From Anthoceros angustus (Eukaryota > Plantae > Anthocerotophyta): 64,000 bases of DNA. Every line of letters begins with the position of its first letter. Position 1 is the stretch's first letter. A program made the position numbers and the translations under genes. The notes beneath the pieces are model-generated. The model was not told where the DNA came from. It did no database searches and saw only the letters and a list, made by a program, of their open reading frames with translations. Shown here piece after piece: positions 26,346-59,830 of the stretch. Where the stretch lies: positions 1,550,001 through 1,614,000 of the forward strand of contig MU008163.1 in the NCBI GenBank assembly GCA_010909165.1, written 5' to 3'.

Positions 26346-26499
26346 TTTCAAATTTGTCCTATGGACAAAATTGCCCGAAATTCCCTATATTGGCTACTAG
26401 GCATAAATTCTACATTAGTCTACTATAACACTACCTATAGTAGTCTACTATAATTGCTATGTAATTGCTGCCAACTTTCAATCGTCTCCAATTCATCAT

Positions 26500-30070: not shown

Positions 30071-30275
30071 TAAAACAATCTTGCATTTATCGCATGATTG
30101 TGTAGAGGGGAACGATGAGCACATGAGCGAGTGTTGAATAGAAAAACGGTTACATTGAATAAGAATCAAAAGATTATATGTACAAGAAAAAGAGCGGTTA
30201 TTCGTTGAAACTGTTTATAAGACTAAACCCTAGATTTATGTTTAGGGTAAATGACTTAATTTGTGATTTTCTACA
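30071..30275 (-). repeat. 3' LTR of the copia element (205 bp)
   Basis: Closely matches 59831-60026. The minus strand starts TG immediately after the polypurine tract AAGAGGGAG (30276-30284). Confidence 0.85.
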
Positions 30276-31755
30276 CTCCCTCTTAGGCGCAATAAACAGG
30301 AAATGAAAACCACGAAATAATAAGGCATCATTGCGCGCAAAAACGGGGAGCAGGAGTTCGCGCAGTACAGCACCCTGAATTACTCTCCACCAAGAGTAGC
30401 ACGCCCGCTTACAAATAGCAACAACTATGGCACCTCTCACTCTCCAGCAATCTCTCTGTGCCATTACTGGCGTCCAAACTGTGGCATTCATCTGGCACCT
30501 CTGTAGGATATCCATTGCTCTCCTGCGCAACTATAGTCACTGCTGTATGCTCATGGCTCCACATCGCAGAGGTGTCGAGTGTCTTCACTGTAGCAGGCAG
30601 TGGGTGCCTGTCACCCAATTCACTCCGCGCCAGTGGATTCTTCACAACGTGACATGTGATGTGGCGCGACTTTTGCTGACGCTCAGCCGGGCGCGCACAA
30701 TCCCGTGTTGTTGCAGTAAGGGGTCAATTCCCAAGGGAATGATTGGTTCCGTTTTGCACGTCGCGGACCGAGTCTCACCTCGATGTTGGGCAGTTTCTAT
30801 CTGAGACCACAACGCAATCGTTTTCACTCCTAATTACTCTTAAGCGTCCACCGAACAGGCCCGGCGTGGCCAAACGTTTAAGGACTCGTTCTCGTCCGTT
30901 TCCTATCAGTCCATGCTATGTCTCGTCTAGTCCGTCTCGCCTACCACACTCACTAAGCACAATACCGGTTGGGAAATCGTGGGTGGGTTTGCGTGGCCCG
31001 GACCTCCGTTGTCGTTCAACCAGGCCTCTCCGTCCGGGCTCTGCAAGTCCTCTCGGAGTTCCGCTGGTCTCACACGTTCTAGTCCGCTCGACGCCGACCT
31101 CCTGCTCCGGAAGAGCAAGGGTCCTTGGTCGTCCGCTCCTGCACACACCACCACACGTTAGGGTCCGTCACCAGGACCTGGATCAGTCTCTCCGGGGCTG
31201 TCTTGCCTGTTCGGTGACTCAGGACTCACGCTAGCCAAGGACACACAAGGGTCTGCAAGGGAAACGCGGTATCAACCCCAAAAGAAAGATGCTTTACTAG
31301 AGCAGCCCCTGCCCTCTTATACTACGCCCTAAGGCGGCATCTTTATTACACTCCTATTCTAAGCTGATGTCCAGCTCAATGTGCCCTAGCCTCCAGCCCA
31401 CTATTTCCCTTAGCTAGCCTATCTGCGTCTACGGCGGTGGGGCTGGGAGTGCCCATGATTCCGCCCTGGCGTTGGTGGCCCAATCCCTAGCCGTGACAGT
31501 TGCGGCGCGCCCAATCGAATGATCCGTGATGCAGGGCCCCTCGCCCTTCCCGAGACTCTGTCAGGCTGAGCTACGGGTGGCGGCTTGACGACCGTAGTGA
31601 CCACCAAGTCCTCCTCTTCGCCCCCTCTTAACTCGCTGGTGGGTCCCTGCTCTGCGGGTCCACCAGGAGGCTGTTCTGCCTGGGTGGGCTGACGGTGGTC
31701 CCCTCTCACCCTTTCCCCCTCTTGTGTCTGGACCTCGGGGTCCGGCCTTCTTTTT

Positions 31756-31885
31756 GGAGTCCGGATCTCAAGGTCCGGTCTCGTTTACGGAGTCCGGACC
31801 TCAGGGTCCAGTCTCGATTCCGGAGTCCGGACCTCAGGGTCCGGTCTCGATTCCAGAGTTCGGACCTCAAGGTCCGGTCTCGCGG
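31756..31885. repeat. 33-bp tandem repeat x4 in element A2
   Basis: GGAGTCCGGACCTCAGGGTCCGGTCTCGATTCC units; related units at about 32935-33035 and, inverted, at about 54290-54530. Confidence 0.8.
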
Positions 31886-34800
31886 GTTCCTGGACACCTC
31901 GCCCAGAGCATTCCCCGGGGGCCCGTCTTCACCCACCGGACCCCCTGCCTATCTTGGGTCCCCCTGGACTTCTCCTTCTCTGACCCCCTCGGGGCCCTCC
32001 TCCCCTTCTTCCCTTGTGGGGTGCGACGAACTTACCTCTTGTTTGGTAGTGTCCACCGTATCCCCCTCGTCCTGGTGCTCTCCTTCTCCGCTGTTGCTCT
32101 CATCCCCGAACAACGCCTCCAGGGTTCCGGTGGCGACGCTATCCCCGAGGCCTTCATCTTGCCCCCCTCCCTCTGATCCTTCCGGTGGCCCCTCAATCTG
32201 TCGGGGGTGAGACAGGACCTCCAGCGCCTTAAGGAGCTCCGCGTGGTAGTAGGCGAAGTCCGAGTCGACTTGCTGGATGGCTTCCTCCACATGGGCCTCG
32301 CCAGTTGGAGTCTGGCTGAGTCTCTCGAGGCGGCCAAGGCTGCCTCCGCCACTTCCTGCAGCCTTTGCTGCTACTCTGTGTGCTCCTCCTCCCGTCGTTT
32401 CTGCAGCTTGGCCATCTTGCTGGCCATGACGCGGCGTTCCCCTTCCGCCTTCCGCAACCGGACCAGCAGCTTTTGCTCCTCTCTCAGAGCGCTCTCCCCA
32501 CCATTCATCCTTGCCTGGAGGACCACCATCTCCCTTTCTAGGCGGTTCGGCAGCTCCGCCCGGCTCCTGGCTTCCTCCAAATCCTTCTCCATCTCGGCGA
32601 TGTCCAGCTCAATGTGCCCTAGCCTCCACTATTTCCCTTAGCTAGCCTATCCTCTCTGTGATGGTGGGGTGCCCCGATTCCGCCAGCGTTGGTGGCCCAA
32701 TCCTAGCCGTGACGTTCTGGCAATCGAATGATCCGTGATCGGGGCCCTCGCCTTCCGAGACTTCTGTCGAGCTACGGGTGGCGGCTTGACAGTAGTGACC
32801 ACCAAGTCCTCCTCTTCGCCCCTCTTAACTGGTGGGTCCACCTCTGCGGGTCCACGAGGCTGCTGGGTGGGTGGCGGTGGTCCCCTCTCACCCTTTCCCC
32901 TCTTGTGTCCGGACCTCGGGGTCCGGCCTTCTTTTTGGAGTCCGGATCTCAAGGTCCGGTCTCATTCTGGTCCGGACCTCGGGGTCGATCTCGATTCAGT
33001 CCGGACCTCGGTCGGTCTCGATTCAGTTCGGACCTCGAGTCGTCCATGAGTTCTGGACACCTCGCCCAGAGCATTCCCCGGGGGCCCGTCTTCACCCACC
33101 GGACCCCCTGCCTATCTTGGGTCCACAGACTTCTCCTTCTCGACCCCTCGGGGCCCTCCTCCCTTCTTCCCTTGTGGGGTCGGCGAACTTACCTCTTGTT
33201 TGGTAGTGTCCACACCGTATCCCCTAAATCTGGTGCTCTCCTTCTCCGTTGCTCTCATCCCGAACAACGCCTCCGGGGTTCGGTGGCGGCTATCCCAGGC
33301 CTTCATCTTGCCCCCTCCGAGTCCTTCCGGTGGCCCCTCAATCGCCGGGGTGAGGCAGGGACCTCAGCGCCCAGGAGCTCCAGCGTGGTAGTAGGCGGTC
33401 CAGTCGACTTCTTTGGATGGCTTCCTCCACATGGGCCTCGATTGGAGTCTGGAGTCTCTCGAGGCGGCCAAGGGCGCCTCGCCACTCCTGCTGCACCTTG
33501 CTACTACTGTGCTCCTCCTCCCGTCGTTTTGCGGCTTGGCCATCTTGGCAGCCATGGCGTTCCCTCCGCCTTCGCATGCGGACGGCTTTTGCTCCTCTCT
33601 CAGAGCCCTCTCCCCACCATTCATCCTTGCCTGGAGGGCCACCATCTCCCTTTCCAGGCGGTCCGGCAGCTCCGCCCGGCTCCTGGCTTCCTCCAAATCC
33701 TTCTCCATCTCGGCGATGTCCTGCTCCTTATTTCGCCGCCGAATTTCCTCCGCCCTCCAACAGAGCTGGAGCCGCTCTATCTCCCTTTCGTGGTCCTCGA
33801 TTCTTCCTTGGAGGTCCCCGTTCCGCTCCTCCGTTACCTGGAGCTGTAGCTCCAGGGTCTCCTTGCGGTCCTCCAGCTCCTGGCGCCGCTCCTCCGTACC
33901 TTGCAGCTGTGCCCAGAGATCTTCCATCTCCCAGGTGGTGGCCTCCCTCTTTTCTTCATGGCTTGCCCGTGCTTGCTCGCACCTTCGTCCTTCAGTTGGC
34001 GGCTACTCCCGCCGCCTCCCCCCACTGGTTCCGATCCCGCTGGTAGTGGTCCCTATCCGTCTTGATTTGAGCCCTCGCCTCCACGCCCTTCACAGGCCTC
34101 CCAAGCTTGGTGTTGTTCTGCAGGCGGTCTCGGCCAGTCCTTGGCCCCTCTCACCGCCTTCTCGCCTCCTCTGCCTCTTCTTGGGCCCCTTCTCTCTGCC
34201 TACAAAGTTCCTCTGCCTTTGCTTGTGCCTCCTGTTTTCCTGCCCATTTGTTCCATGCAGTGAAACCCTGTCTTGGTGGGCGGACTGGCCTCGGATTCGG
34301 CCGCGGTGCTTCTCCTCCTCGGCCTGTGAGGGTCTCCGCCTTTCTCACAGCTTGGGCGCCTCCGCCTAGCCTTGAAGCTCCACCATCGTCATCGGTGGCC
34401 TCCACTTCTGGGCCTTCTCTGGATTCGCGAGACCCCAAATACTCCGTCCATGATGGTGAGCACTCTCTGGTCTCTTCCACGGCCGGGGAGATACACGTGA
34501 ATCCGCGGGCTCGGGTACGCCAGTTCGTTAAGGACCTCAAGGTCGGTCTCATGAGTTCTGGACACCTCGCCCGAGCATTCCCGAGGGGCCCGTCTTCACC
34601 CGGACCCCTGCCTATCTTGGGTCCCAGACTTCTCCTTCTCGACCCCTCGGCCCTCCTCCCTTCTTCCCTTGTGGGGTCGACGAACTTACCTCTTGTTTGG
34701 TAGTGTCCACCGTATCCCCTGCCCGGTGCTCTCCTTCTCATTGTTGCTCATCCCGAACAACGCCTCCGGGGTTCGGTGGCGGCGCTATCCCCGAGGCCTT

Positions 34801-36094
34801 CATCTTGCCCCTCCCTCGATCCTTCCGGTGGCCCCTCAATCGCCGGGGTGAGGCAGACCTCCAGGCAGGAGCTCCAGCGTGGTAGTAGGCGGTCCAGTCG
34901 ACTTCGGATGGCTTCCTCCACATGGGCCTCATTGGGTCTGGCCGAGTCTCTCGAGGCGGCCAAGGCGCCTCGCCACTCGCAGCCTTTCGCTACTGTGCTC
35001 CTCCTCCCGTCGTTTTGCACAGCCATCTTGGCCATGACGTTCCCCCTTCCGCCTTCGCAACGGACGGCTTTTGCTCCTCTCTCGGGCGCCTCCCCCATTC
35101 ATCCTTGCAGAGGACCACCATCTCCCTTTCTAGGCGGTTCGGCCCGACTCCGCGCTCAGCTTCCTCCAAATCCTTCTCCATCTCGTGATGTCTGCTCCTT
35201 ATTTCGCGCAATTTCCTCCGCCTCCAACAGTGGAGCCGCTCTATCTCCCTTCGTGGTCCTCGATTCTTCCTTGAGGTCCCCATTCCCTCCGTTACAGGAG
35301 CTCCCCAGGTCTCATGCGGTCCCCTCCACTCCCGCCGCTCCTCCATTTGCGGTGTGCCCAGATCTTCCATCTCCCGGTGGTGGCCTCCTCTTTTCTTCCT
35401 GACTTGCCGTGCTTGCTCCTTGCTGACCTTCAGTTGGCTCGGCTACTCCGCCGCCTCCCCCAGGTTCCGATCCTGTAGTGGTCCCTATCCGTCTTGATTT
35501 GAGCCCTCCCTCCGCCCCTTCACAGGCCTCCCAAGCTTGGTGTTGTTCTAGGCGGTCTCAGCCAGTCCTTGGCCCCTCTCCGCCCTTCTCGCCTCCTGCC
35601 TCTTCTTGGGCCCTTCTCTCCGCCTACAAAGTTCCTCTGCCTTTGCTTGTGCCTCTGCCGTTCTTGTTCACAAATAAGCACCTAGTCTGTCTTGGTGGGC
35701 GGACTGGCCTCGGTCGGCCGCGGTGCTTCTCCTCCTCGACTGTAGCGAGGGTCTCCGCCTTTCTCCTGGCCGCTTGGGCCGCCTCCGCCTAGCCTTGAAG
35801 CTCCACCATGCGTCATCTGGTGGCCTCCACTTCCTGGGCCTTCTCTGCCGTTCCGCAGAGACCCCAAAGTACTCCGTCCATGATGGCTGCGAGCACTCTC
35901 CTGGTCTCTTCCACGGCCAGCGCTGGGGAGATACACGTGAAGTCCGCCGCGGGCTCGGGTACCGCCCGGTTCGTTAAGGACCTCCAAACCGCAGTCCGGA
36001 GGGAGGCCGGACTAGGGACTCGGGACCCAATCAGGACCCTCAGGTCCTGAGTGTTCTGGTCCGGGGCTTCCACCTCCTTAGCCCTCTTGGCTGC

Positions 36095-39000
36095 TGTGGT
36101 GACCACATGGGTACTCAGACCCCCCTCGAAAAGGAGTGTTTTTTTTGTTTTGTGTTTAAGTTGTGAGAATCGTGTGGAGTTGGGATGTGAAGTAGGTTAG
36201 GAAATAAGAAAAGTCTACTAGAGCCTAGTAGGGGAAGAGAGTCTAGTCACGATCTGGGCGGAACCTTGGAGGGTTGGCTGCTCGGCGGTTGCTAACGCGG
36301 TGCTAGGGCTAAGCAGACTGACTATGGCAGCGACAAAGCTGTTGCTATGGTAGCAACCAAGTCGGAGTTATTTTCCGATAAATGGAAAACCTATTTGAGT
36401 GAAATCACAGGAAATACCAACGGAAGTAACGCGGGTCCTATTTCCAGTGGAAGAGACAAGGAATATTTGCGGTGAGAGGCGGGCGGCGCCACACCTCAAG
36501 TCGGAGCGTGGCCGTGGACGGAGGGAGGAAAGCAGGCGGGCGTCAGCGGGAGTCACGGCGGCGCCTCGAGAGAGAATCGGGTGGGATGGCGGTCAGGCGG
36601 ATCGGCGGTGGGCGGTGAGTGGGCCGTGGCCCCAGGCAGGCGGAGCGAAGGGCGGTGGAGGAGCTCGGAAGTGCGGCGTGGGCGTGGGAAGCAAGCGAGG
36701 CTGCAAATTACGCCCAATGGCGGGTGGGGAGTAATCGGGCCGTGTAGCTCTGGAGAAGACTAGGCGGGCGGCGTATGCGGGTGCCGCAGGAGCTAAGGAG
36801 GCAAGTCGGATAGGCCGGTGAAGGGGCCAGGCTGCAGGAAAAGGGCGTGTGCAGGTGTCGAATGGTGGCACCACAGGGAGGTCGCGGACAAGGGCAAGAC
36901 AAGGCGCACCAGTCCGTCTAGTGGTTGCAGGATACATCCTCCAAGTCTGCAGGTACACCAGCCTCACACAACCGAGGTAGGCCGAGCCGAGGCAGGCGGT
37001 GTATTGGCGTGAGGATAAGAACGGGGTTTCAATTCCGGAGGGTCGGGGTCTTTGAGTCGGGACCGAAAAGCGGGGGGGAAGATAGGGTGTGAATAAATTG
37101 AGTTGTGGCTTCCAAGTCGGAGTGAATCGGGAGGACACCCTTGCCATCGTGAAGTTGGAAGCGAGTGTTTCCAGGATCCTCGGTCAACAGCTAAGCGGAA
37201 ATTTCGGATGGGAAGTCGGCCACAGGGAGGCGATACGAGCATGGGGCAGGAATCTTGAAGTGGGAAGTGCGGTGGTGCATCGCGATGGCGGGACTCCTTA
37301 CTGTGGCTCGAGCCACGTCACGGTCGGAAGCATGGCCCCTAAGAAGACCACTCCGGTGGCCATTGAGGCCATTACCACTCAATGGCCCAACATGGGGCCT
37401 TTGGAGAGTGGCGGGGTCTTTGGTGGCTAAGCATCACTTGTCCTTCATGGACAAAAGTGGTGCTACAATAGCCCGTCGTTGGTTTGGGAGTGTGCAGGGC
37501 ACATGAGGGAGAAGGCCACAGGGGAAGGCAACACGAGAACCAACCCCCGCAGCTGGAATATTCAGTTGTTCCAGGCTGTCTATGAGAGGCCTGAAGAGGA
37601 ATGTGGCGGAATAATCATTGATCCTTTCAGGAAGCCATCTCCCCAAAAGTCAGGAGGCACAAGCGCCATTGCTCCCACATTGTCTAGGGTGGAGAATGGT
37701 GGGTCACCAACAAGTTAGACCCGAAATGGCCGGATTAGCCAAGTGGATCCTGTGCTCTCGGCTCACTAAGAAGCTAGAGCACATTCTTGACCATTTTCTT
37801 GTCTTTCTCTATGAGGTGGTGAGAGGGTCCAAGATAGATTGGGCTAGGATGTTCTATGACACCTGTGCGAGAGGGACCACTTGACCCTACCATCACCCAG
37901 TCCCTCAGCTCTATCTCCTTCTTAATCCACGTTTTGACCATGCCAAGTTCTTTGGAGGGATAGAGATGGTCTCGACCTTCCATGCCCGGAGGCCGGTGTT
38001 TGAAAGAAGGAAGCCCAAAGAGGAGTCGGAGGAAGAGGCCATCTCCGGTGCAGGGAGTGAAGATGAGAAGTCAAGTGTCCATGAAGAGGAATGTGGCGGT
38101 TGCTAAGGTGTCGGCGGTTGCTAACAAAGCAACTGGAGTTGCTAAGACTCCAACAGGCACCAAGAGAGGTCAGGCTGAGCAACAGGGGACTCCAACCACT
38201 CCTAGAGCCACAAGAGCACGACCGGAACTCACCCGGACAGGTGACAAGGAAAGGCGGGCGGCACAGTTCAGAGCCGTGGCGGGAAGCCACAGGTCAACAG
38301 GAGGAATCAGCCCAACCTTTGGGCACGGCCGAGCTGACCCGAGAAAGTCACTACCTGTTCAAGGGGGTGACCCTCAAGTATACCCCGGAAGTGGTCGCAG
38401 GGGAGAGTCAGTTGCGCCAGATAGGAAGGAGGGAACCCATCCCCAGTAGGGTTTGGGGGCCTAACATCACCCTACAAGAGCTGGTCTCAGCTATGGCACG
38501 CACTAGGGGTGAGATGGAGGACCAGATAGCTCTGGTCCTCTCTTTGTTAGGTTTCTGAGCGGGGGAACAGGGGGCGGCTAAAGGAGCTCCAGGGAATGAA
38601 GCAGGAGAAGGAGGTCTTGGAGGGACGCCTAGGTAGCATGGAAGCGGAATTAAGGAAGGTCCAGAAGAGTTGCGGCGGAAGACCAAGGATCGAAACCCTC
38701 ATGGTTCGCTCTCGGACGCACAAAGCACCATAGGGGAGCCGCAGAATGTCATCTCGGATCATGAGTTCGGGCCGAAACGGATGCCCTGGCGCTACAAGAA
38801 GGAGAGGGACGAGGCAAGGAAAGGTGGAAAGAGGCCAAGAGGGCCGGGATTGCAAGGAGAGCCAAGTGGAAGATGCGGAGCCTCCATGGAAGAATCATTC
38901 TTGAGTTAGCGAGAGGAGGTTGCTAAGCAAGCAAGCAAGCCGCTAAGGAAGCAACAACTCCCTGCTAAGGGAGCAACAGCTCCAAGACGAGCTACAACAA

Positions 39001-40883
39001 GGAAGAAGGGGCAATAAGACCTGTGAGGAGGACAAGCAGGCCGGGGGCGGGTAAGCACCGCCTAAGAAGTCTAACTTCCCAATGGTGCATTAGATTGAGG
39101 ATGCTTATCAAGATAACCATGTGCCCGGATTCTCCTTGGCGGAGAGAAGATTGTCTCCAAAGTTTATGTTGTTGTGGGCACAGGGGGACATGGAGGTACT
39201 TGATCCATGCCTTGGCAGCCTTTGGATCCTACCTATGGGTTGGATTCTTAAGGAGGAAACTCTCGGCCGACCCATCCGAGATTCAAGAGCTCACCGAGGA
39301 GGAGTACTGGACTATGCGGCGAGCACAAGAGAGAGGAGTCCAGCTCGAGGAGGTAGAGATTTTATGGGAGAGATTGCCCAACCAGCCAAGAGGGAGGAGA
39401 GCAAGAGGAGAACATGGGGCTAGGCGGCCTAGGAGGCCCAGAGGTAATAGGGGTAAGTGGCCACTGAAATAGCTAAAGGCCCATGTGTTATAGACTGTAA
39501 ATCTTATCCTCTCTCATAGTGGACAGAATTGATAGATAGACCTCTAGGATTGGTAGGCTAAGACTGATTGGTATTTTTGGCAAGCAGCCAAGCTGCTTTT
39601 GTGGGCTGATCTTGGGTATAAGAGGCAGCCCCCCTTGATGAAATGTAAGCAATGTTGGCCTAAGTCTCGGTGTTTGGGGCTGAGTACGGGGTTTGGGAGG
39701 GTTCGGATCCGGTCTTTGTAAGCCTGGGCCTGTTCCTCTGCAAGACTACCAAGTTGCCCGGATCTGTGGCGGATCCATGAGTGGTGGAAAGCAAGGGGAG
39801 AGAGCCTTGTGATCTCCTTGGAGGGAGTTCTCAAGGTCAAGAGGAAGGGGGTCGGGAAGCCGGGGAGGTTGTCCCTCCTTTTACTCATTCTCTGCAGTTT
39901 GTCTAGTACTCACCTTGTGTTTGAGTTTTCAGAGTGTCGAAGGTCGCAGGAGAAAAGAAGACAAGGCGGGAGCCGGTGTGTGGAGGAGGAAGTCAAGTGA
40001 GTGGGGCTGTGGGCTTGTGGGTTGGAAAATGAGAGGAAAAGTGAGCCGTAAGAGAAGTGGAGAATCTTTGGACATGGAGAGTTGCTGATTGGCTGTTTGA
40101 GAGGAGTAAGAAGGACTGGAGAAGTCTGTAAGTGATGGTTGTGTTCTGAAGAGAGAGAGAGTGGAGGTTGAAGATCCGTGAGTGGATGAGAGGAATGATT
40201 GCGAGAGATAGCTGAACAAGCATTTTGAGAGTTGGGGAAGTGCTGTAAGGGCCTGGATGAGAATCTTGTAAGGACTGGGAAGTGTTGTGAGCTGTGGAAG
40301 TGGAGGTCGAATGGGGCAGTGAGGAGTGAGAACAAGGAGGGTTGAGGAGAGTTGCTGGGGAACTTGGAGAGGGTGATGAAAACCTGGAGGTGTTGGTATG
40401 GGGTTCGGAAGGTGAGCTGAAAGGCCAGAGAGGGGGCAAGGAAGTCTGAAGAAGTGCTGCAAGAGTGAGAGGAGGAGGGGGAGTTATGAGAGCAGTAATC
40501 CTGATTGGTGGATCTAACTTTGTGGATGAGTAAGAGAGAGAGAGAGAGAGAGGTCAGCCTTATCCACTTGGATCCCGACTGGGACCCACCTATTAATAGC
40601 CGACTGATCCCAAGGTGGACCCCCTCTGCTAGAAATAGAGGCGGTTGCTAAGTTAGCAAGTCATCCGTTCGGGGTGGCATCAGTGGCTAAGATAGCCACA
40701 GTGTCCGAGTGTTGTTAGGTAGTAGCATGCATGCGCTAGATGTTTGGTGTGTCATGTTTGGTTGGATTGGCTATGTTTTGGTTGTCTTGACACGAAATCA
40801 CTCCCTTGGGTGAATCTCAAGTCTACAACGATAAAGAGGGTAAATGTGGCCTCTTTGTGACCATAGTTTAGAAAATCACTCCA
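36095..40883 (+). mobile_element. Nested insertion B2 (about 4.8 kb), relative of B1, inside A2
   Basis: Starts TGTGGTGACCACATG (B1: TGTGGAAGACCACATG); ends after GAGGGTAAATGTGGCCTCTTTG as B1 does. ORF remnant GLAKWILCSRLTKKLEHILDHFLVFLYEVVRGSKIDWARMF (about 37730-37855). Removal restores A2 EKELAAKRAKE; TSD degenerate. Confidence 0.7.
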
Positions 40884-43279: not shown

Positions 43280-44137
43280 TCCTGCTGCCGCCAAGTGCTT
43301 CTGATGTAGGGGCTTAGGTAAAGCCTTAGTTAGGATATCCACTGTGTTGTCCCCAGTAGGAATATATTGGACAACTACTTCCCTTGTGTCTACCGCCTAC
43401 CGTATGAAATGGTGGGTAATCTCTATATGTTTGCTCCTTGCATGAACCGGATTTTTCGAAAGAGCAATGGCCAATTAATTGTCACACCAAAGCTTGGTTG
43501 GGTCTGGCCCAAGCTATTGCAGCCCTCTCAAGAAGGAACGAATCCAGATTATCTCCCTCGCAACCTATGACAAAGCTCCATATTCTGCTTCAGTTCAAGA
43601 TAAGCAATGGTTGTCAACTTCTTGCTGCTCCAGGAAATCACAGAATCACCTAACAAGTTGCAGTAGGCAGCAACACTATGCCGATTATCAGGGTCACCAG
43701 CCCAGTCTGCATCGCAAAAAGAACTAAGCTGCAAGCCTCCAGGTTGAGCCTGATACCGAAGCCCATACCTGGATGTTCCCTTCAAGTATCTAAAGATACA
43801 TTTCACTGCTGTCTAGTGTGCCTCGCCAGGATTCTCCAAGAATTGTGAGACGTTACTAACAGCACGAGAAATATCAAGTCTAGTCGAAGCAGCTAAATAG
43901 ATAAGACAGCCTATTACCTGCCTGTAAGGTCTCTTGGACATGAGCTCTTTCTCATCATCTGTGGTGGGGCACTACTCTTTAGACAGTTTCTCCCTTGTCG
44001 ACATAGGGGTAGATACTGGCTTGCAGTCCTCCATGTTGAATCTCTTTAGGAGTTGTTCAACGAAGTGTTCTTGGTGAATATCAATGATGTAGCCAGAGTC
44101 CTGGAAATGAAACTGAATCCCAAGTGAGAAAGACAGT
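43280..44137 (-). pseudogene. Copia RT C-terminus and RNase H
   Basis: LGIQ..HFVEQLLKRFNMEDCKPVSTPM; TRLDIS..; FCDADWAGDPDNRHS; S*TEAEY; DNTVDILTKAL; contains stop codons. Confidence 0.9.
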
Positions 44138-47100
44138 TGTGGAAGACCACATGTACACTAACTCCTCTCTGAAGTGTCGGGATGAACGATTTTTTTTTGT
44201 TTTGGGAGTGTTTGTATAGCAAAGTGCTTTGAGAATCGCCTGGGTAAGGTCTTTTATACGAGAACGGTCCTTGGCCCTTGGGATAATAATTTTCTTTTTT
44301 GGACCTTAGGTTTTCGACCCCGGATAGGTAGGTCGGAAATGGAGTCCTTGGGTTTTGGTAATGGTAGAAATAAGAAAGTGTCTATATATGCTAGAGGTGC
44401 CTACATCACCCACGATTCTTGTGATCAAGCGGGAGGTGGCAGTTCCACCACGGTGGCGAATAGCAGGGGCGTCTGAGGCCGGGAGTTTACAACCCTAGTG
44501 GCGGAGGCGGGGGCAGTCGGGGCGGCAGGAGCGGAGACACCCCAGCCTGCAGTCGCCTTCGGGCCGGGGCGTCGGAGGCGGGCTGCAGCAAAGGCGCGCA
44601 TGCGCGCACGGGAGACTCTGTTTTGTGCGGTAGGGGCCGTGTCGGTCAGTCGGAGCAGCGGTGGCGGAGGAAGGAAACCGCGCGTGGCAGCGAAGGAGGA
44701 AAGGCAGGCGGGGCGCCCGAGGAGCGGAGAGCGTGCAAGGGTGGTGTTCCCTCTTCGACCAGCGTCTGGTGGGTCGAGATTTCTTTTGGGAAACAAGGAG
44801 AAAGGGAGATGGCGCCCAGCTGCGGCGAAATCCCCACCATCGGTGGCCCAACATGGACCCTTTGGAAGGTGGCTGGCTGGTCAGGAGTTGGGAATTTATG
44901 GAGAAGAAATGGTGTTCTGACATGACATTGGTGCAAGAGTCGCCCGGCAATTGAGAACCAAGTTGCAAGAAGGCGAGGAAGAGGCCGGGATTTGGGGCTC
45001 TTTCGGCGATGTATCGAGAAGCATCGGAGGATGGAAGCTTGGTAATTGACCCCGGAGAAAGACCACGAGGCTGCGGCCGCGCTCATGAAACTGGAAGTGA
45101 GGGTGAACAATGGGTGGGTGACTCGCCAACTCGTGTCTGCGCAGCTGGTGGGATTGGCCAAGTGGATTCTGTGCTTTCTACAGAACAGGAAGTTGGATCA
45201 TATGGCAGACCACTTCCTGGTCTTCCTTCATGAGGTGGTTAAAGGTACACAAATTGATTGGGGGCGGATGATCTTTGAGAGAGCCTGTGAGGAGAGGGCG
45301 AATTTGCTCTCCCCTTCCCCTCGGCCCTCCTTGATTTCACCTTTTCTAATTCATGTATTCGCGCATTCCGGGTGTCTAACGGAGTTGAAGTCGGTTCCGC
45401 CTTCATAGCCGGAAACCGCGGAACTCAGAGGAGGAGGAGTGTAAGGAGGATTCCGGGAAGGATTCTAGCAGTTGGGAATGCGCCTCCCTAGAAGATTCGG
45501 ATGAAGGTGGGGAGGTTTCCAAGGGCAAGAAGCGAGGGCGACGGCCGAACGGGTCAAGGGAAGGACACCAGCAGAAGAGGAACCCAGCTACACCTAGGGT
45601 CACCAGGTCGAAATCAGCAGGAACGCGGGTGAAGGAGGAGAAAATAAAGGAAGCGACAAGTTGTGCCTCTCAGTGGGGAGGAGTCGCTAGGAGAGATTGG
45701 AGGAAGTAGTGGCAAACCAACCCCTAGAAGAAGAGGGGTTAGTTTCGATAGCCAAGTCCGCAGAGTCTGAATTTTTGGCGACATTTCACCGACCACCGGC
45801 CGAAGTGGGCAGTGACACCACCACAAGCAGAATTGCTCATGGGAGGAATGGGCACGGGGCAGCCACTGGGAATCTACAGCCCCGACTGGCCATGGCCTGA
45901 GGACGCAGGCGATCTCCATGCATGCCCATGGCCTTTCACCTGTGAGGCAGGTCAGAGGGAAAGTTGGAGAGCCTAGAAGGCGAGAGATGGGGCCGAGTCA
46001 AGAGAGAGGCCAAACCAAGAAGGGCAGAGCCACGAACCAGAGTCAAGCCACCACCGTGGGGAAGACCACCACGGTGGCTAAACCGCCACCGCGAAGGAGG
46101 AACCGAGGTGGGGAAGTCACCATGTGAGCGCCGCAGTGGGGATACGGCCCCCGAAACCCAAGGCGCCCAGATTGTCCACGGAGGAGAGGTAAGGACCTCT
46201 ATATCGGAAGGCGTATTGTGCTGCGGCGTCACGGATGAGGATGCTCATGTCCCCGGCTTCCGCCGCATGGTGAGCGTGCTCACTCTAAATGTGTATGTGG
46301 TTGTTGGGACAGAGGGGCGTAAACTATTGGTCAGACATCTTGACCGCCACGCTACTGCTGGTTCTTCCGAACGGAGCGGGGCCTACCCCCAAGTGGTGAT
46401 CGAGGAAATGGCGGAGGCAGGCGTGGAGGGAGGAGCACGGTGCCCAAATGATGAGAGCGGAATAACGCATAGGGCCTATAGACGCGCGACGCCCATGGGA
46501 AGACGCGAAGAAACTGCGGGCAGTGACTGCGAGGTGGAGGTTTTGGGGGAGAATCGCTCGGATCGGGCGTGGCGGAGGCAGGCGTGGAGAGCGACGGAAC
46601 CCCACCGCCGCAGTGGCTAGGCAAAGAATCGTGACGCGCCGCTGATTTTAGAGGGCGACATTGCAGGCCAAGAGTTCCTTTTGGGGTTAGAGGATAGGGT
46701 GTTTTGAGGGTTCATGAGTCGAGTTACCGGAATTGGTAGGGCGTCGTGGTAGGTCATATTTTCTAGACACTGAGGAGTGAGCTGGAGATCCATACCGAAT
46801 GTATAAGAGACCCTTGAGTGTCTCTCGATAATTTCGTGTGAACTTCCGTGTGTTGAAGCTATGCGAGGTTGGTTGGAGACGCCCGATCGACATCAAACTC
46901 GTTCGATGCACCGCTCATCACAAGAAGGCCGGGAAGATCACTGGATGGTCGAGGCGGGTGGCCAAGCTCCACGCCTGGGTGACTAAGGTAATCGACGCGA
47001 AAAGAGGTAGGAATTGCCGCGGAAGGCTAAGGCGGGACTGCCGGAAGGCGAATCGCCAAGCACTGTCCGGGGTTTTCTTTCCTGATCCTCTTTCCCAACT

Positions 47101-47659
47101 ACTGCCACCCGGCGTGTTTTATTCCATGAGTGGGGGTCTGTGTGGCCCAAGAGGGGTCTGTGTGGCCCAAGAGGGGTCTGTGTGGCCCAAGGAGGGGTCT
47201 GTGTGGCCCGTGAGGAGAGGGAGAGAGGATTTATTAGGAAGGGAAAGGTCCCCGAAAGGGTGGATGAGTGCGTGTGAGGATTGTGAGTGCGTGAGGGAAA
47301 ATCGGAAATGAGTAAGGAGAGGGGTGTGCGGTGGAATCATGGAAATTCACAAGTAAAGTGAGGCGTGTATAAGTGTGTGTATGTCCATAGCCCCAAGGTC
47401 TCCGAGGGTGACAAATAGCCCCTGACTGTGGCGTGCGGACCCACCACGTGGTTGAACCCGAACGCGGTGGCCGAGTCTTCCACTATGGGTAAAGTGGTCA
47501 ATAAGGTGGGGTAGTGATCGATGGGGTAAGTCTAGAATCCATAGTTTTAGAACATCTTGACACAAAACCATTCCTTTGGGATCGAATCCTAGGACTATAA
47601 CGACATAGAGGGTAAATGTGGCCTCTTTGCGTCACCAGATGCAAAAACCCCATTCCACA
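44138..47659 (+). mobile_element. Nested insertion B1 (3522 bp), TGTGGAA...TTCCACA, 5-bp TSD ACAGT
   Basis: ACAGT at 44133-44137 and 47660-47664 (again at 49537-49541 in the duplicate); removal restores RT DLGQLSFSLGIQ. 7-bp terminal inverted repeat; ORF remnant with KLDHMADHFLVFLHEVVKGTQIDWGRMIF (45046-45408); TATAAG at 47368. Confidence 0.85.
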
Positions 47660-48945
47660 ACAGTTGGCCTAAATCAGTCATCTCAAAACGAGATAGCAAG
47701 ACCTTCTTAATTTTCTCCATCAGGGAAGGAGAGGTGCGAATAAAGTTATCATCGACATAAGCGATAAGTATAATAAAGTCATCTCCATCCCATAGAATGT
47801 AGACACTTGTGTCAGCCAAACATGTAAAGCCTAACTCAATGAGTAGAGCATGAAATGTCTCATTCGCACTAGAAGACTATTTTAAGCCATACAACGTTTT
47901 AAGCAAGCACACTTTCTTCGTGTCCATAACGAAACCTTACGGTTGGCTCATATAAATTTCTTCTTCTAGAGACCCGTTTAAGCGGTCTTGACATCTAATT
48001 GGTGTACAAGTAAACCATACTGTGCAGCTAGGGCTAGAAGAATTCTGACTGAAGTAGCCTTTACAACAGGTGCAAAGGTCTCGTTATAGTCTAGTCCTTC
48101 TACCTGGCTGTATCCTTTGGCAACTAAACGTGCCTTATACCTTCCAACTGTGCCATATGCATTCAACTTCTTTTTAAAGACCCATTTGCATGTGACAGGT
48201 TTCCTACCATGAGGTAAATCAACTAAAGACCAGGTTTGATTAGCAATTAGGGAGTTATACTTAGACTTAACGGCTAACTAGGTTTACGCTTTAGGTCGTG
48301 GACGTTCTGGTAGGTTGGTTCACCAAGGGAAGAAGACACGTTGAAGGCATGATGAGGTTTCCTACGTGCAAGACCCGGCTACAAAGAGGGTTACGCCCAT
48401 TAGGACGTCTCACTCTAGAGGAATGCCTAAGAATAGGTGAGGAAGGGGAGAAAGGTCCGTGCGTAAGACATGGCCGTGTAGTAGTCGTTGATTGAGGGAT
48501 CGGGTTCAACTTCCTCAGTTCAACAACATCGGGAAAAAAGTCTGGTGATAGGAATGAGGTGAAGAAGACTCATCCGGTCAGACGGGTGTAGACCGCAGAC
48601 CGGTGGTGTTGACTGAGTAGTTGTTGTCTGAACAGCAGGTGTAAATGAGGTTGTGGTGCCCCCTGAAGATGTAGAAGGTGAAACTGGATCATCAACATCA
48701 AAGACAGAAATATTAGTCGTACTGTCAAAGAGATCACCAGAGTCATCAACTCCTTAAATAGATGGTAGTAATGAAGGTGCATGAGGCAAAAGAGTGGCTT
48801 GATGCTGTCGAAGAAGGGCATCCTCATGAAAAACAACGCTGCGGGCTATGGACAGCTGACGTGTGTGAGGGTCGAACAGTTTGTAGACCTTGGCCTCGTC
48901 ACTGTAGCCAACAAAGATGCGTCTAACAGCCTGTGGACTACGCCC
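47065..48945. repeat. Degenerate tandem duplicate of 48945-50875 (end of insertion B1, copia RT, and first bases of insertion A1)
   Basis: Same sequence with many small deletions. It reproduces the CCACA/ACAGT junction at 47659 and the CAGCC/TGTGG junction near 48930. Confidence 0.8.
47135..47210. repeat. ~21-bp tandem repeat x3-4 in element B1
   Basis: GGGGTCTGTGTGGCCCAAGA units. Confidence 0.75.
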
Positions 48946-49536
48946 TGGGGTTTTTCCCGATCCTCTTTCCCAACCCGCCACCAGCGTGTTTTATTCCATG
49001 AGGGGTCTGTGTGGAGGGGTCTGTGGCCCAAGAGGGGTCTGTGGTGGCCCAAGGAGGGGGGCCTGTGGCGTGAGGAGAGGGAGAGAGGATTTATTAGGAA
49101 GGGAGAAAGGTCCCCGAAGGGTGGATGAGTGGCCGCGTGAGGGATTGTGAGTGCGTGAGGGGAAATCGGAAATGAGTAAGGAGAGTGTGCGTGGAATCGG
49201 AAATTCCTGGAAGTAAAGTGAGGCGTGTATAAGTGTGTGTATGTCCATAGCCCCCAAGGTCTGCGCCAGAGAAGCAGGTGACAAATAGCCCCCGCGACAA
49301 AGCGGCTGCGTGGCCGACCACGATTGGTTGAACCCGCCATCGCGGTGGCCGAGTCTTCCACGTGGGTTTGGGGGGTAGTAATAAGGTGGGGTAGTGATCG
49401 ATGGGGTAAGTCTAGAATCCATAGTTTTAGAACATCTTGACACAAAACCATTCCTTTGGGATCGAATCCTAGGACTATGACATAGAGGGTAAATGTGGCC
49501 TCTTTGCGTCACCAGATGCAAAAACCCCATTCCACA

Positions 49537-50863
49537 ACAGTTGGCCTAAATCAGTCATCTCAAAACGAGATAGCAAGACCTTCTTAATTTTCTCCATCAG
49601 GGAAGGAGAGGTGCAGAATAAGAAGTTATCATCGACATAAACGATAAGTATAATAAAGTCATCTCCATCCCATAGAATGTAGACACTTGTGTCAGCTGCC
49701 AAACATGTAAAGCCTAACTCAATGAGTAGAGCATGAAATGTCTCATTCCAGGCACGAGAAGACTATTTTAAGCCATACAACGTTTTAAGCAGCTTGCACA
49801 CTTTCTTCGTGTCCATAACGAAACCTTCTGGTTGGCTCATATAAATTTCTTCTTCTAGAGACCCGTTTAGAAAAGCAGTCTTGACATCTAATTGGTGTAC
49901 AAGTAAACCATACTGTGCAGCTAGGGCTAGAAGAATTCTGACTGAAGTAGCCTTTACAACAGGTGCAAAGGTCTCGTTATAGTCTAGTCCTTCTACCTGG
50001 CTGTATCCTTTGGCAACTAAACGTGCCTTATACCTTCCAACAGTGCCATCTGCATTCAACTTCTTTTTAAAGACCCATTTGCATGTGACAGGTTTCCTAC
50101 CATGAGGTAAATCAACTAAAGACCAGGTTTGATTAGCAATTAGGGAGTTATACTCAGACTTAATGGCTAACTTCTAGTGTTCTGCTTTAGGTCCAGTGAC
50201 AGCTTCTAGGTAGGTTGCAGGTTCACCAAGGGAAGAAGACACGTTGAAGACAGGCTGATGAGGTTTCCTACGTGCAAGACCAGCTACAAAAGAGGGTTCT
50301 GCCCATTCGCTCATAGGACGTCTCACTCTAGAGGAATGCCTAAGAATAGGTGAGGAAGGGGGAGAAAGGTCTGGTGCAGGTAAGACATGGCCAGGTAGTA
50401 TGTCAGGTTCAGATTCAGAGGGATCAGGTTCAACTTCCTCGGATTCAACAACATCAGGAAAAAAAGCTGGTGATAAGGAATGAGGTGAAGAAGACTCATC
50501 TGGGTCAAGTACGGGTGTAGACCAGACAGCAGCTGGTGGTGTTGACTGAGTAGTTGTTGTCTGAACAGCAGGTGTAAATGAGGTTGTGGTGCCCCCTGAA
50601 GATGTAGAAGGTGAAACTGGATCATCAACATCAAAGACAGAAATATTAGTCGTACTGTCAAAGAGATCACCAGAGTCATCAACTCCTTAAATAGATGGTA
50701 GTAATGAAGGTGCATGAGGCAAAAGAGTGGCTTGATGCTGTCGAAGAAGGGCATCCTCATGAAAAACAACGCTGTGGCTATGGACTATGGGACGTGTGAG
50801 GGTTTGGTCAGTTTGTAGACCTTGGCCTCGTCACTGTAGCCAACAAAGATGCGTCTAACAGCC
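49537..50863 (-). pseudogene. Copia integrase C-terminus and reverse transcriptase (N-terminal part)
   Basis: IFVGYSDEAKVYKL; RYKARLVAKGYSQVEGLDYNETFAPV..QLDVKTAFLNG..IYMSQPEGF..LYGLK; IVYVDD..FEMTDLGQL. Confidence 0.92.
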
Positions 50864-53800
50864 TGTGGACTACGGGCTTCCCGGGGGGGTTAGAAATTAG
50901 GTAGGATTTGTTTTTTGTGGGAGCGATAAAATGAGGCGAAAAGGAGGAAATAAGCACGGTTAGCACCGGACGGCACTCGAGTATACTCCGACCGAGTGAG
51001 GAACGACTAGACCCACGATGGCGCATAAGGTAACGGTAAGTCCGGACCCACCTGTGACCAGGTGATAAGCACGTGAAAGTAACTTAGAAGTTGGGCCGTA
51101 TGACGGACTAGGCGACGCCACGGACGACCGAGTGGAGGACGGCATGCAGGTCAGACCGTGAACCTGCTGCAGAGGCCGTTATAGCAGTATTCACGCCTGG
51201 CCGCGCGCGCGAGGGGCCGCAGTGCACGCGAGAGGCCGTAGTACGCGGGCGGGGCCGAGTAAGCCATGCACTGGCGCCACGGATGTGAAGAGGCGCCTCC
51301 CGCCGTTACTCCCGGCGTGGTCGGAAGGCTGGCTCACCGCGCAGCCTCGAGACAATTTCGCGATCTCGCGCCCGCACCGCTCGGGCGGTATCTCGTGGAC
51401 ACTCAGACGCCTGCGCGGCTCACCGCTGAGGCTCGAGCAACGAACGCGGGAAGAACGTGCTGCCAGCCTCCCAAGGCCAAGGCAACCAAGGGAGGAGAAG
51501 GCGATGGCACCCAAAAGCCCGCTGGAAGTTTGGGAGCCATGGAACCTTGTGGAGCGCAACATTGTGACCCGCGCTATCCGGACTTTGGGCTCGCCCGTGA
51601 AGCGGAGAATTGGTGCAGGAGTGGCATTTGGATGTGTTCCATGGTCCGACATTTGACAACATGTCACTCGTCCGGAGTTTGCCCAAGATGCCGGGCGGTC
51701 AATAAGGAGGTGCGGTCCAAGAACCTCCGGAGGACCCAAGGCGATGGACCTTGAGGTCCCAAGGCGCCTACAACCGCCCCAAGGAGGAAGAGGGAGGGTG
51801 CCGAGCCCTCAAGGCGAAGGGAAGATAGGTCCGCCCACAGATGCTAAGGCTCGACGAACGACCACCAACGGTTGGTCGATATCCGACTGCTGGATGGCCG
51901 AGTCGTGGGTGGATCATCGCCCATCGAACCTACTCACCAAGGTGGATCACCTTGGTGATAATCTATTGGTGTTCCCGCACGCTGCAGCTGGGAAGAGGGC
52001 GACCGGGAGGATTATCTTCGCCTGCTTAGCTGTGAGGCTCGCAAGCTGTGGACCGAGAAGCCTCGCCATCTGGGCCGCCCCATACCGATCCATGTATGGG
52101 GCATTTCAACCCTCAAGGAAGGAGAGCTTGAGCGAGCGCCCGGAAAGGACTGAGGCCCCGCCAAGTGGAGCGGCAAGGGCGCCGAGGGAGGAGGCCGTCG
52201 AAAACCAAACGGACTGGAGGAGGACGATCGAGGATTCCTGACCCATACGTGAACGGACCCCTCACCACCTGTGGAAGTATGGGAAGCACCCGCCTCCTCC
52301 TTCCGTGCCCCAACCGTAATGCCCAAGCAGAAGCGCCTGACCCCAGCCACCGCCATCACTCCTACCGAGGAGCCCCGCCGACTGTGAGAGAGCCAAGAAA
52401 CGCAAGACCACGGCTACCAACGCTGCACCCCGGCCAAGATTCTTCCCCGCCGACGGAGTGGCAAGAAGCGGAGGAAGCAGAAGGAGGTAGGACGCCTGTG
52501 GAGGAGGACACCGGCAGCAGATCCAGAGCCGGGTCCTGCCGGCTGTGAAGGGGCAAAAGGGCGTGCTCCCGGACTCCATCACCTCCGCCGAGCCCCAGGA
52601 GGAAAAGGGCGGAGAAGGAGCTCGCGGCCAAAAGGGCCAAGGAGGGGAAGCCCGAGCCAAAGACTCGTGACCTAAGGGTCCCGATTGTCCGAGAACCCAC
52701 CGACTTGCTCCGGATCATGGTATGGAGGTCCTTGACGGACTGTGAGATGCCGGCCCCGCCACGGACTTTGTGGGAGCCTCACTCAGCCGCCGTGGAGGAA
52801 ACACGGCGGTCCTGCCACCGCCATGGACGGTATGCCTGGGGTCTCAAGGGATGGCCGAGAAGACCTGTGGAGGTGAAGCCACCCGAGGCGCATGGTACCT
52901 CCGTGAGCAGCTGGAGGAGCCCAGAGGCGAGAAGGAAGGCCAAGCTCCCAGGATTGAGGAAGGAAAACGCCGGAGGCGGAGAGGAGGTCCGTCCATCCGC
53001 AAGGACCGGACTAAATTCCTTCACCGAGGAACAAGGGCCAAGGAGGCCCAAGCGCGGCGGAGGACCTCCGCAGTGAGGGCGAGCGCAGCAGAAGCGAGGA
53101 CGCCCGGCGCAAGCGAACGGGCGCGGATCTCGCGAGGCACTGACCGACCAGAGCCAAGCCGGAGAGGCTCGTGAAGGTGGCCAAGGAGGCGGAGGCCACG
53201 GCGGGCCGATCGCGATCACTATCGGTGATCGAACCGGTGGAGGGAGGCGGCCGAGAGAGCCACGCCAATCAAGGCCGAGCAAGTGGTCATGAGCAAGCAC
53301 TCCGAGCCGTGAGGAGGCATCGGAGGCCAGCACCCGGGAGATTGGGGACCCTGTGGTGCACTGCAGGAGGTAGAAGGGCGGCGGCAGGAGCTGGAGGACA
53401 GCAAGGACACCTTGGAGTTGCAACTCCAAGATGCATCGGAGCAGCAGGGGGTTCTCAACGAGAGAATCCAAGACTTCGAGCGAGAGGTAGAACGCCTCCA
53501 GCTCCGCTTGAAGACGGAGGAGAATAGGCGGCGGTGCAAGGAGTTCGACGTCGCAAGGTTGCAGCAGGATGTGGCGGAAGCCAGGAGTCGGACGGGGATA
53601 CCGGCCCGCCTGGAGAAGGAAGTGGAGGACCTCCGGGAAAGAATAGACGAAGGGAAGAAAGCACTGGAGGAAGGCGCAGCTTGCTCGTCCGGCAGGAAGG
53701 TAAGGGAGCTCACCCATGGCCCGCAAATCAAGTGAGTCAACAACGACGGGAGGAGGAGAACGTCGAGCAGCAAAGGTTGCAAGAGGTAATCTGAGGCAGC

Positions 53801-55422
53801 CTTGACGGCCTCAAGGGAGTCCGCCCACCATACCGTAAGCTTGGCCACGGAGACGGCGCCAGGTGGGCGATCCGCCTGCCACGAGCACCTCGAGGAGGGA
53901 GTACCGTGCCCGGCTCATGTAGAGGAGGCGATTCAAAGTCGATTCCGACCGCCTACTACCACGCAGAGCTCCTCAAGGCTCGAGGTCCCGCGCCACCCCA
54001 GTGGAGGTGGACTCCAAGGGATGGAAGGAGGAGCGAGAGGACGGACCCGGGACAAGACAACCGCTGGAGTCCTAGGAGCGCCTGCTTGACGACGGCAGCA
54101 GCAGCGAGGAGAGCAGGAGGAACCGGAGGAGGAAGGGTCGCCACACCGAGGTAAGCACTCAGACCTCGCATGGAAGGACGAGGGAGGATCTTGAGAGGAA
54201 GGGAAAGGGTGCAACCGGGCATTCGGGAACCAAGGGAGGGCTCAGGATGAACCCATGACCAGTGAGGAGGCATGCCCAGAGTTCGAGGGTCCTGACTTTG
54301 TCCGGACTGAGGAAGGCCGATCCCGAGGTCCGCCTCAAGGAAGTCCGACTTAGGGATCCACTAGTGACGATCCCGAGGTCCGACCCTGAAGGGTTGGGTC
54401 CAAGACCGGACCTCAGGCAAGTCCGGCCCCCGAGGACCTGACTGAAAGAAGGCGGCCTGTGGAGACCGGACTCAGAGGGAAGACTGACCTAGAGGTCCGG
54501 ACCCGAGTCGAGACAGGTCCCGAGGTCCAAACTGGGAGTGGGGAGAGCCACCAACACCAACCCCAAGCAGATCCACTTGAGGGCCATCGCGGGGCCCGCC
54601 AGAGAGAGAAGAGGGAGGACGAGGAAGACTTGGTGATGGCTGCCGCCCGCCGGGCGCAGCACCCTGGAAGAGGAAGGGGTCCCGCGATCATCCGATTGCC
54701 GCACTGACTGTGGCCCGGCCGCCAAGAAGGAATGGGGCTATCCCACACCACCGACCGCGATAGGGAATAGAGGTAGTAGGCGGCGGTTAGGCACACCGAA
54801 ATGGCCCCTCACCGTAATAGAGGTAATAAAGGCGCACCTTCGCGAGTATAAGAGGGCTAAGGCCGCCCAATAAATCATCTTCTTGGTGTTGATGCCGCTG
54901 CCTGCACCTTTGTGTGTCTTCTGCTAACGTGAGTCCCGAGTCACCGAAAGGTGCACGCCCGGGAGATTGACGTGGTCCCGTGACACCTAACGTGTTGTGG
55001 TGTGCAGGAAGGGTGATCGTGCTCGCCGAGCGCCCAAAGACCGAACTGGACGAACGTGAGCCGGAGGAACTCCGGAGGGCGGCAGAGCCCGGACGGAGAG
55101 GCCCATGAACGACGAGGAGGTCCGATCGGTAACCCGCGCTGCCTTTTCTAAGACCGAGTGTAGCGTGAGGAGAGAGGAAAGGACGAAGTGTGAGTGACGA
55201 ATGAACGATACGGACGCGAACGGTCCCTAAACGCTTGGCCATACCGGGCTCAGACGGTGAACGCTAGAGTAGTTAGAGTATGTGCGAGATCGAACGAGCG
55301 CGGCGCGGTAGGAATCACCAAACGCGCAAACGGAGCCTATCATTCCCTTGGGAACGGATTTCTTCCTACAACGACACGGGATTGTGCGCGCCCGGCTGGC
55401 CATCAGCGAAAGTCGCGCCACA
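50864..55422 (+). mobile_element. Nested insertion A1 (4559 bp), TGTGG...CCACA, 5-bp TSD CAGCC; giant solo LTR or LTR-less element
   Basis: CAGCC at 50859-50863 and 55423-55427; removal restores copia KLDPKAVRRIFVGYS. TATAAG at 54847 and AATAAA at 54869 lie near the right end. Confidence 0.85.
51504..54260 (+). pseudogene. Decayed ORF of element A1: MAPKSPLEVWEPW N-terminus, KVDHLGDNLLVF..(DW)GRIIF domain, long Glu/Arg-rich coiled coil
   Basis: Pieces in shifting frames, e.g. 53412-53735 ELQLQDASEQQGVLNERIQDFEREVERLQLRLK; homologous to A2 pieces. Confidence 0.6.
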
Positions 55423-55562
55423 CAGCCTTAGGATCAAGTTTAGCACGTAAAGCAGAAGGAACAAGAGCATATGCAAGAGAGCCAAAAATCCTAAGATGTG
55501 AAATGCGTGGCTTTTTCACATGCCAGCGCTCATGTGAGGTTACTAAACCAAGTTCCTTTGTG

Positions 55563-58038: not shown

Positions 58039-58039
58039 T

Positions 58040-59810: not shown

Positions 59811-59818
59811 TTAACATG

Positions 59819-59830
59819 GCTCTGATACCA
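59819..59830 (-). promoter_or_regulatory. Primer-binding site complementary to the 3' end of tRNA-iMet
   Basis: The minus strand reads TGGTATCAGAGC directly after the LTR. Confidence 0.92.

Follow-up and report, generated by a model that had tools for sequence, protein, structure and literature searches.

The 64,000 nucleotides of Anthoceros angustus DNA analysed here (NCBI GenBank assembly GCA_010909165.1, contig MU008163.1, positions 1,550,001 to 1,614,000 of the forward strand; hereafter the window, numbered from its first letter) include a Ty1/copia retrotransposon that contains four insertion units beginning with TGTGG (A1, A2, B1, and B2; Table 1) and the 3′ end of a fifth (C). These units are probably solo long terminal repeats (LTRs) of Athila-like elements (non-chromovirus Ty3/gypsy) that carry an accessory gene in U3; their LTR status is inferred, and membership of Athila is not established. 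The unusual point is that the end-repeat itself would hold the accessory gene.

The nested insertions are real. A1 is located in pol of the Copia element, downstream of its integrase core, and B1 in the Copia reverse transcriptase (RT); once each unit and one copy of its target-site duplication (TSD) are removed, the pol frame is open, with no stop, across both sites, and A1 and B1 are therefore clean insertions. A first-pass annotation of the window had listed four units with TGTGG starts, three CCACA ends, and two perfect 5-bp TSDs, with no direct terminal repeat and no RT or integrase motif. All of this was borne out: the starts lie where they had been placed, the CCACA ends belong to A1, B1, and A2 (B2 ends in CTCCA), the perfect TSDs are those of A1 and B1 (2/4), none of the four units has a direct terminal repeat, and neither the motifs nor any Pfam domain was found in the unit frames tested. 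An integrase domain or HHCC motif is likewise missing from the unit frames, an absence expected in non-autonomous copies. The TSD of A2 is imperfect (CACATG on both sides, one side displaced by one base); the damaged 3′ junction of B2 fits a TSD of GCTGC, as judged from the orthologous stretch of A1. Perfect inverted ends measure 5, 7, 2, and 5 bp in A1, B1, B2, and A2, respectively. Ends and TSDs taken alone are near chance (8 of 3506 TGTGG..CCACA pairs have a matching 5-mer, against about 3.4 expected; four of the eight are A1, B1, or stutter copies, and four look like chance) and were therefore given no weight alone; A1 and B1 are validated by the Copia frame.

A2, annotated before as an insertion at 30660-42624, is not a 12-kb unit but a minus-strand relative of A1 that has been inflated by B2, C, and assembly stutter; it is collinear with A1 at 61-67% identity. 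A single family had been described; at least two are present (A1/A2 and B1/B2), and DNA similarity between B1 and B2 is confined to three patches. All four units have a common polarity: TGTGG is followed by a T-rich tract, then by an ATG that lies 640-1240 bp into the unit and opens the reading frame (ORF), by one TATAAGAG, by a 3′ motif, and by CCACA. Fragment C (~520 bp) has no 5′ part and replaces about 650 bp of A2, which may reflect a real deletion or a misjoin. Short tandem repeats are found in the units at 31756-31882 (33 bp), 42356-42484 (32 bp), and 47133-47209 (20 bp). In the A family such repeats, found upstream of the ATG as well as in the tail of the ORF, abound in TCCGGA/GGACC words and could be binding sites for the encoded protein.

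The units were described previously as having their own protein-coding gene. Their ORFs begin with M-[AG]-P, and the substitution patterns indicate that they are under purifying selection, but none is intact, each being frameshifted. The ORF of A1 may extend as far as about 54780, for a length of about 1090 codons; the best conserved open stretch of B1 is 45046-45405 (LAKWILC...IDWGRMIFE). The ratio of nonsynonymous to synonymous substitution rates (dN/dS) is 0.16 for A1/A2 over 220 codons and 0.15 for B1/B2 over 82 codons, both biased low by the choice of blocks with tblastx; a ratio near 1, named in advance as part of the outcome that would make the units plain large solo LTRs, was looked for, and with values of about 0.15 this test did not refute the first interpretation. 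Two comparisons are free of this selection bias. In DNA-aligned ORF blocks, mismatches show a three-base periodicity (p=0.0005 for A, 20 blocks; p=0.0015 for B, 3 blocks) that was not found after the TATA (p=0.30, 6 blocks) or upstream of the ATG (p=0.26, a single block) and is weak in the A tail (p=0.09), as is the support for that tail. When the B1 frame at 45046-45405 is compared with public contigs, 16 of 17 differences are synonymous (among the 40 differences listed, with 122 further ones).

Downstream of the ORF, 576-1267 bp from the unit 3′ end, each unit has TATAAGAG, a candidate LTR TATA box. Four of its five matches in the window fall one per unit, on the unit sense strand (1.0 match expected), and 0 of 100 shuffles reach five matches. 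The 3′-terminal motif, a candidate U5 signal, is situated 47-82 bp from the end in A1 and A2 and in like places in B1 and C, and aligns also in B2; its pattern has four matches (A1, A2, B1, and C) against none in 100 shuffles. Because TATAAGAG was chosen after the sequence had been viewed, and the 3′ pattern was built from the matched copies themselves, the shuffle values overstate significance; what matters is the consistent strand and position. Two of the signals proposed at first were others: the TATAAG of B1, at -292, is not conserved, the B1 copy of TATAAGAG being at -858, and the AATAAA of A1 (-554, downstream of the TATA), taken for a polyadenylation signal, is missing from A2. The TATA of B1 and the polyadenylation signal of A1 named there are thus probably not the conserved ones. 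RNAalifold predicted only two small hairpins (-4.3 kcal/mol) in the unit 3′ ends.

Copies of the units also occur in a public DNA sequencing run (X1) that shares 0.14 of the sampled words. In X1, 3751 of 592,621 contigs align to 43500-56000, and variants are numerous over both A1 and B1; summed contig depth is not equal to copy number, and the Copia body, next to uncovered in X1, was not used as evidence. A short-stretch alignment to X1 comprised 40 contigs, and the results given here come from 8 of 40 pieces and from 6 of 14 loose-end contigs. At least two contigs among these six, one long and one short, continue past the 3′ end of the B unit into flanks that differ from those in the window, and a further one has an exact match to A1 as far as 50864 and then continues beyond it; the unit boundaries are therefore confirmed outside the window. 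The short contig reads CCACA-TTT-TGG and then stops; the stop at TGG suggests a branch common to several copies. The 5′ junction of Athila is described as an LTR pentamer, an AT-rich spacer of 3-6 bp, and TGGCGCCGTTGCC (ATHILAfinder; bioRxiv 10.64898/2026.03.20.713144). CCACA-TTT-TGG could accordingly be read as the start of an Athila-type junction between LTR and primer-binding site (PBS); it is a hint only, because three PBS letters are visible. If the units are LTRs, a recurrent PBS of the TTTTGGCGCC type would be expected after CCACA, and a purine tract before TGTGG. No RNA run is among the public runs listed as sharing the sampled words; a further run (X2), RNA only by guess, has contigs of 1690 nt over the B1 ORF and 1635 nt over the A1 ORF, which were not counted as expression.

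Relatives of the encoded protein were sought by sequence and by fold. The A and B ORFs have a weak likeness in the conserved domain (BLASTP 12/29, pairwise E 2e-05), which is the top non-self match of 1574 pieces (E 0.12 there). Pfam scans, which covered open fragments of 56-223 aa, gave no match to the Athila extra-ORF profiles PF03078 and PF20167, and for the coiled-coil-like stretch of A1 weak matches only (best E 0.0027). In the Atlas, the clusters nearest to the B1 domain are unnamed streptophyte proteins (0.93), and one neighbour set has DUF1985 on 20% of its members (0.92); the 49-aa start of A1 gave no usable match. A search of longer proteins with the B1 domain gave 100 candidates, one with the B1+B2 alignment at similar lengths gave 35, and one with the N-terminus of A2 gave 74; none of these was a relative. 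Four phmmer matches among 1.84 billion representatives were, on inspection, all repetitive unrelated proteins, and matches to complement C5a in a PDB sequence search were rejected as weak (best E 0.024). Two structure models were obtained at low confidence (pLDDT 54 and 49); a fold search with the first of them gave a best Z of 4.5 and no Foldseek E<=0.001. Scans with unit DNA motifs gave 0 matches in viral contigs and 0 in metagenome contigs.

One of two initial proposals had been that these are large solo LTRs whose U3 contains a gene. The polarity, the selection on the ORFs, the other flanks in X1, and the PBS-like junction support it, and the TG..CA termini, the TSDs, and the lack of a PBS or PPT beside the units, all flanks being host Copia or A2 sequence, are those of solo LTRs; but a paired copy around gag-pol was not seen, so that the reading is unproven. 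Several points weigh against it. No paired copy, gag, pol, PBS, or polypurine tract (PPT) belonging to the units was found in the window (0/4); four solo units with no intact one call for a high ratio of solo to intact elements; and a lineage cannot be fixed without an RT in the units. All ORFs are frameshifted, with sequencing error and decay not separable. The putative PBS amounts to three letters in one contig (among the 6 of 14 loose-end contigs), and about a tenth of flanks would be expected to have a TGG within a few bases of the end by chance. The fragments scanned matched none of the Pfam families Athila ORF1, Transposase_32, PMD, and DUF1985, and the Atlas match to the DUF1985 neighbours is weak, with a recognition of 2273, below the 2300 mark.

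If the units are gene-bearing solo LTRs, a full element (LTR-PBS-gag-pol-PPT-LTR) would have been integrated by its integrase, which would account for the TG..CA ends and 5-bp TSDs. Priming of the plus strand at a PPT upstream of the ORF that other Athila keep as a 3′ extra ORF would result in that ORF being copied into both LTRs. Such long LTRs would recombine often, leaving one gene-bearing LTR between TSDs. Genomic RNA would start from TATAAGAG, downstream of the ORF; the ORF would need a promoter of its own near the 5′ end of U3, and a solo LTR could therefore still express it.

Were the units instead single-unit non-autonomous elements, each with an accessory gene and moved whole by an integrase-like transposase acting in trans (Ginger/GingerRoot-like or of a new class), this would agree with the finding of an internal region, PBS, PPT, or adjacent second copy in none of the four. 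It would agree as well with the TG..CA ends that Ginger elements also have (PMC6839031). The inverted ends of 5-7 bp contrast, however, with terminal inverted repeats (TIRs) of 100-150 bp in GingerRoot, and the 5-bp TSD with one of 6 bp in GingerRoot and of 4 or 6 bp in Ginger elements (PMC6839031); the two ends are unlike each other, the TATA is polar, the motif is at the 3′ end only, and one PBS-like junction occurs in X1. A separate non-autonomous class had been the second initial proposal; beyond the absence of an internal region no positive support for it emerged, and we consider it unlikely. A slightly lower probability is given to solo LTRs that do carry a U3 gene and belong to another lineage (Tat, Tekay, or Copia), or whose gene is unrelated to the VANC/PMD/Athila-ORF group: the units have no RT and no Pfam or PDB match, and a PBS beginning with TGG is found in many lineages (PMC6317226), but the 3-bp spacer that precedes TGG is AT-rich, in keeping with the Athila junction (bioRxiv 10.64898/2026.03.20.713144), and very long LTRs with extra ORFs are known in non-chromoviruses (PMC6317226).

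It is very improbable that the units are internally deleted retrotransposons, composed of a piece of 5′ LTR, an internal 3′ extra ORF, and a short 3′ LTR, with the gene thus outside the LTR. It is common for an extra ORF to lie between pol and the 3′ LTR (PMC7264820), and Athila often loses pol (PMC2410132), but the internal repeat of the first bases expected after the PPT was not found, and the same deletion would be required in four units of two families. Least probable of all is an artefact of assembling noisy long reads. Four tandem duplications with more gap columns than substitutions, a chimeric joint at 48932, and the possible misjoin at C would be in keeping with such an artefact; it is opposed by the perfect TSDs and continuous Copia frame, by the same ends with other flanks in the public run, and by an A1/A2 divergence that is collinear, codon-patterned, and beyond noise.

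On the preferred reading of gene-bearing solo LTRs, the protein, with its conserved N-terminal domain and coiled coil, is most likely a nuclear oligomeric accessory factor. It has a W-G-R motif before a helix, which may be a resemblance to DUF1985/PMD. An anti-silencing function like that of VANC/PMD is preferred, as a lead only and a doubtful one. More doubtful still is the wider scenario in which a bryophyte-type Athila-like clade would have moved a VANC/PMD-like anti-silencing gene and its promoter into U3; formation of solo LTRs, by which the host chiefly deletes its retrotransposons, would then seed expressed silencing antagonists that act in trans on intact elements and aid new copies inside silenced nests. 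VANC (DUF1985) and PMD/MAIN are comparable in being transposon-borne accessory proteins that combine a globular part with a coiled coil; VANC differs in being encoded by dicot MuDR DNA transposons, and no hidden Markov model or structural match to the units was obtained. PMD-C and the DUF1985 of VANC are reported to be structurally alike, and PMD-A proteins are encoded by retrotransposons (bioRxiv 10.1101/2024.09.27.615353); VANC and the Athila domain have been modelled as coiled-coil pentamers (PMC13547354).

Athila (REXdb non-chromovirus/OTA/Athila) has TG..CA ends, a 5-bp TSD, LTRs >1 kb, frequent solo LTRs, and an accessory ORF with a coiled coil, like the units described here, and an LTR end followed by an AT-rich spacer and TGG (seen once here). 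In contrast, its 3′ extra ORF (PF03078, PF20167) is internal, between pol and the 3′ LTR (PMC6317226, PMC7264820), whereas here the ORF is within LTR-type ends; the units measure 3.5-4.8 kb against a default of 1-2 kb in Brassicaceae Athila, and have neither a Pfam match nor an RT for placement. PF03078 is present in only 16% of Athila elements, and LTRs of up to about 5 kb with extra ORFs are typical of non-chromoviruses (PMC6317226). Retrosat2/RIRE3 with ORF0 (PMC3485330), Ogre, and Retand (PMC6317226) are similar in their 3-5 kb LTRs, many solo LTRs (429 solo against 162 complete for Retrosat2; PMC3485330), and a fast-evolving extra ORF under constraint; ORF0 of Retrosat2/RIRE3, unlike the gene described here, is upstream of gag-pol and outside the LTR and hence would not be retained in solo LTRs. 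GingerRoot and Ginger (PMC6839031) share kilobase units, an integrase-type footprint, occurrence in non-seed plants, and nesting in gene-poor DNA, and differ in that the units have no long TIR, a 5-bp rather than 6-bp TSD, and no DDE frame. In the texts cited, plant extra ORFs are placed in the internal region (PMC7264820, PMC6317226, PMC3485330, PMC11728184, PMC2410132), and the available part of PMC13468544 has nothing on LTR genes; a narrow exact-phrase search of the open-access literature found no gene inside a plant LTR, which does not show its absence from print.

In the usual view, a solo LTR is a non-coding end product whose formation disarms the retrotransposon. If a gene under selection is carried by LTRs of 3.5-4.8 kb, each recombination would leave a potentially working element gene; this would change the picture of retrotransposon purging in small plant genomes, give direct access to the function of plant extra ORFs, a question of long standing, and mean that LTR pipelines miss such units or mislabel them as host genes. 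Long LTRs, extra ORFs, and retroviral U3 genes are already known separately; LTR status and function are inferred in the present case. Among retroviruses, sag of mouse mammary tumour virus (MMTV) lies in U3 and nef of HIV overlaps it. Both resemble the units in that a coding frame precedes the LTR TATA box and is copied to both LTRs. They differ in size, with a few hundred codons and LTRs of about 1 kb, against about 600-1100 codons in a plant retrotransposon; the likeness is one of layout.

Table 1 Coordinates of the insertion units, their ORFs and candidate signals, the host Copia element, and indel-rich duplications. Positions are those of the window.
Feature	Position	Strand	Remarks
Unit A1	50864..55422	+	4559 bp; TGTGG...CCACA; TSD CAGCC
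Unit B1	44138..47659	+	3522 bp; TSD ACAGT
Unit B2	36095..40883	+	4789 bp; nested in A2 ORF; 3′ junction damaged
Unit A2	30660..42624	-	A1 relative with nested B2, C, and stuttered ORF copies; imperfect TSD
Fragment C	41149..about 41668	-	3′ end of fifth, B-like unit within A2; left limit approximate
ORF of A1	51504..53980	+	Frameshifted; N-terminal domain, proline/charge-rich linker, predicted coiled coil (53316-53732)
ORF of B1	44809..46620	+	Frameshifted; end approximate
ORF of B2	37332..39472	+	Frameshifted; end approximate
ORF of A2, ATG	41906	-	
TATAAGAG of A1	54847..54854	+	Candidate LTR TATA box
TATAAGAG of B1	46802..46809	+	
TATAAGAG of B2	39617..39624	+	
TATAAGAG of A2	31314-31321	-	
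3′-terminal motif of A1	55341..55376	+	Candidate U5 signal
3′-terminal motif of B1	47569..47605	+	
3′ motif of A2	30706-30741	-	
Host Ty1/copia element	30069..60040	-	Pfam gag, protease, integrase, RT; LTRs, PBS, PPT
Host Copia 5′ LTR	about 59831-60040	-	
Host Copia PBS	59819-59830	-	Met-type
Host Copia PPT	30276-30284	-	
Host Copia 3′ LTR	30069-30275	-	
Tandem duplications	31366-35984, 47069-50874, 55558-58188, 58599-64000		Indel-rich; likely assembly stutter
Tandem repeat of 47069-48942	48932..50863	+	Noisy; likely assembly stutter

The single Copia element that contains all four units and the end of the fifth has thus received five insertions of two or three families, two of them within A2, and this clustering suggests that silenced transposon DNA is targeted by such insertions or tolerates them. 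Between its PBS and gag, at 58821-59810 (-), the Copia element has an open frame of 329 codons with no Pfam match, a 5′ extra ORF. A frame of 96 aa at 42627-42914 (+), which lies antisense to Copia in the interval from RNase H to the 3′ LTR and is cut by the A2 insertion, is without a Pfam match as well; it is possibly an antisense extra gene of Copia.

The land-plant DNA of the window includes long PPR arrays and a gene for a thaumatin, and it comes from a noisy assembly in which most ORFs are frameshifted. Gap columns exceed substitutions in the four tandem duplications (e.g. 69 substitutions and 122 gap columns), and at the chimeric joint the start of A1 is fused to the 3′ part of B1. A cluster of very long PPR genes (1150-14478, both strands) is built of 312-bp (104-codon) triplet units; the genes have C-terminal extensions resembling RNA-editing factors and are partly duplicated and frameshifted. 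The frameshifted gene at 16216-21168 (+), in which a helicase part containing Walker A is combined with repeats rich in cysteine, presumably resembles ZNFX1-type RNA helicases. It is followed by a gene of the thaumatin family at 22496-23233 (+; PF00314, Pfam) and by an AT-rich stretch at 25139-27297 (33-35% GC) that has internal repeats and is unlike the surrounding DNA.

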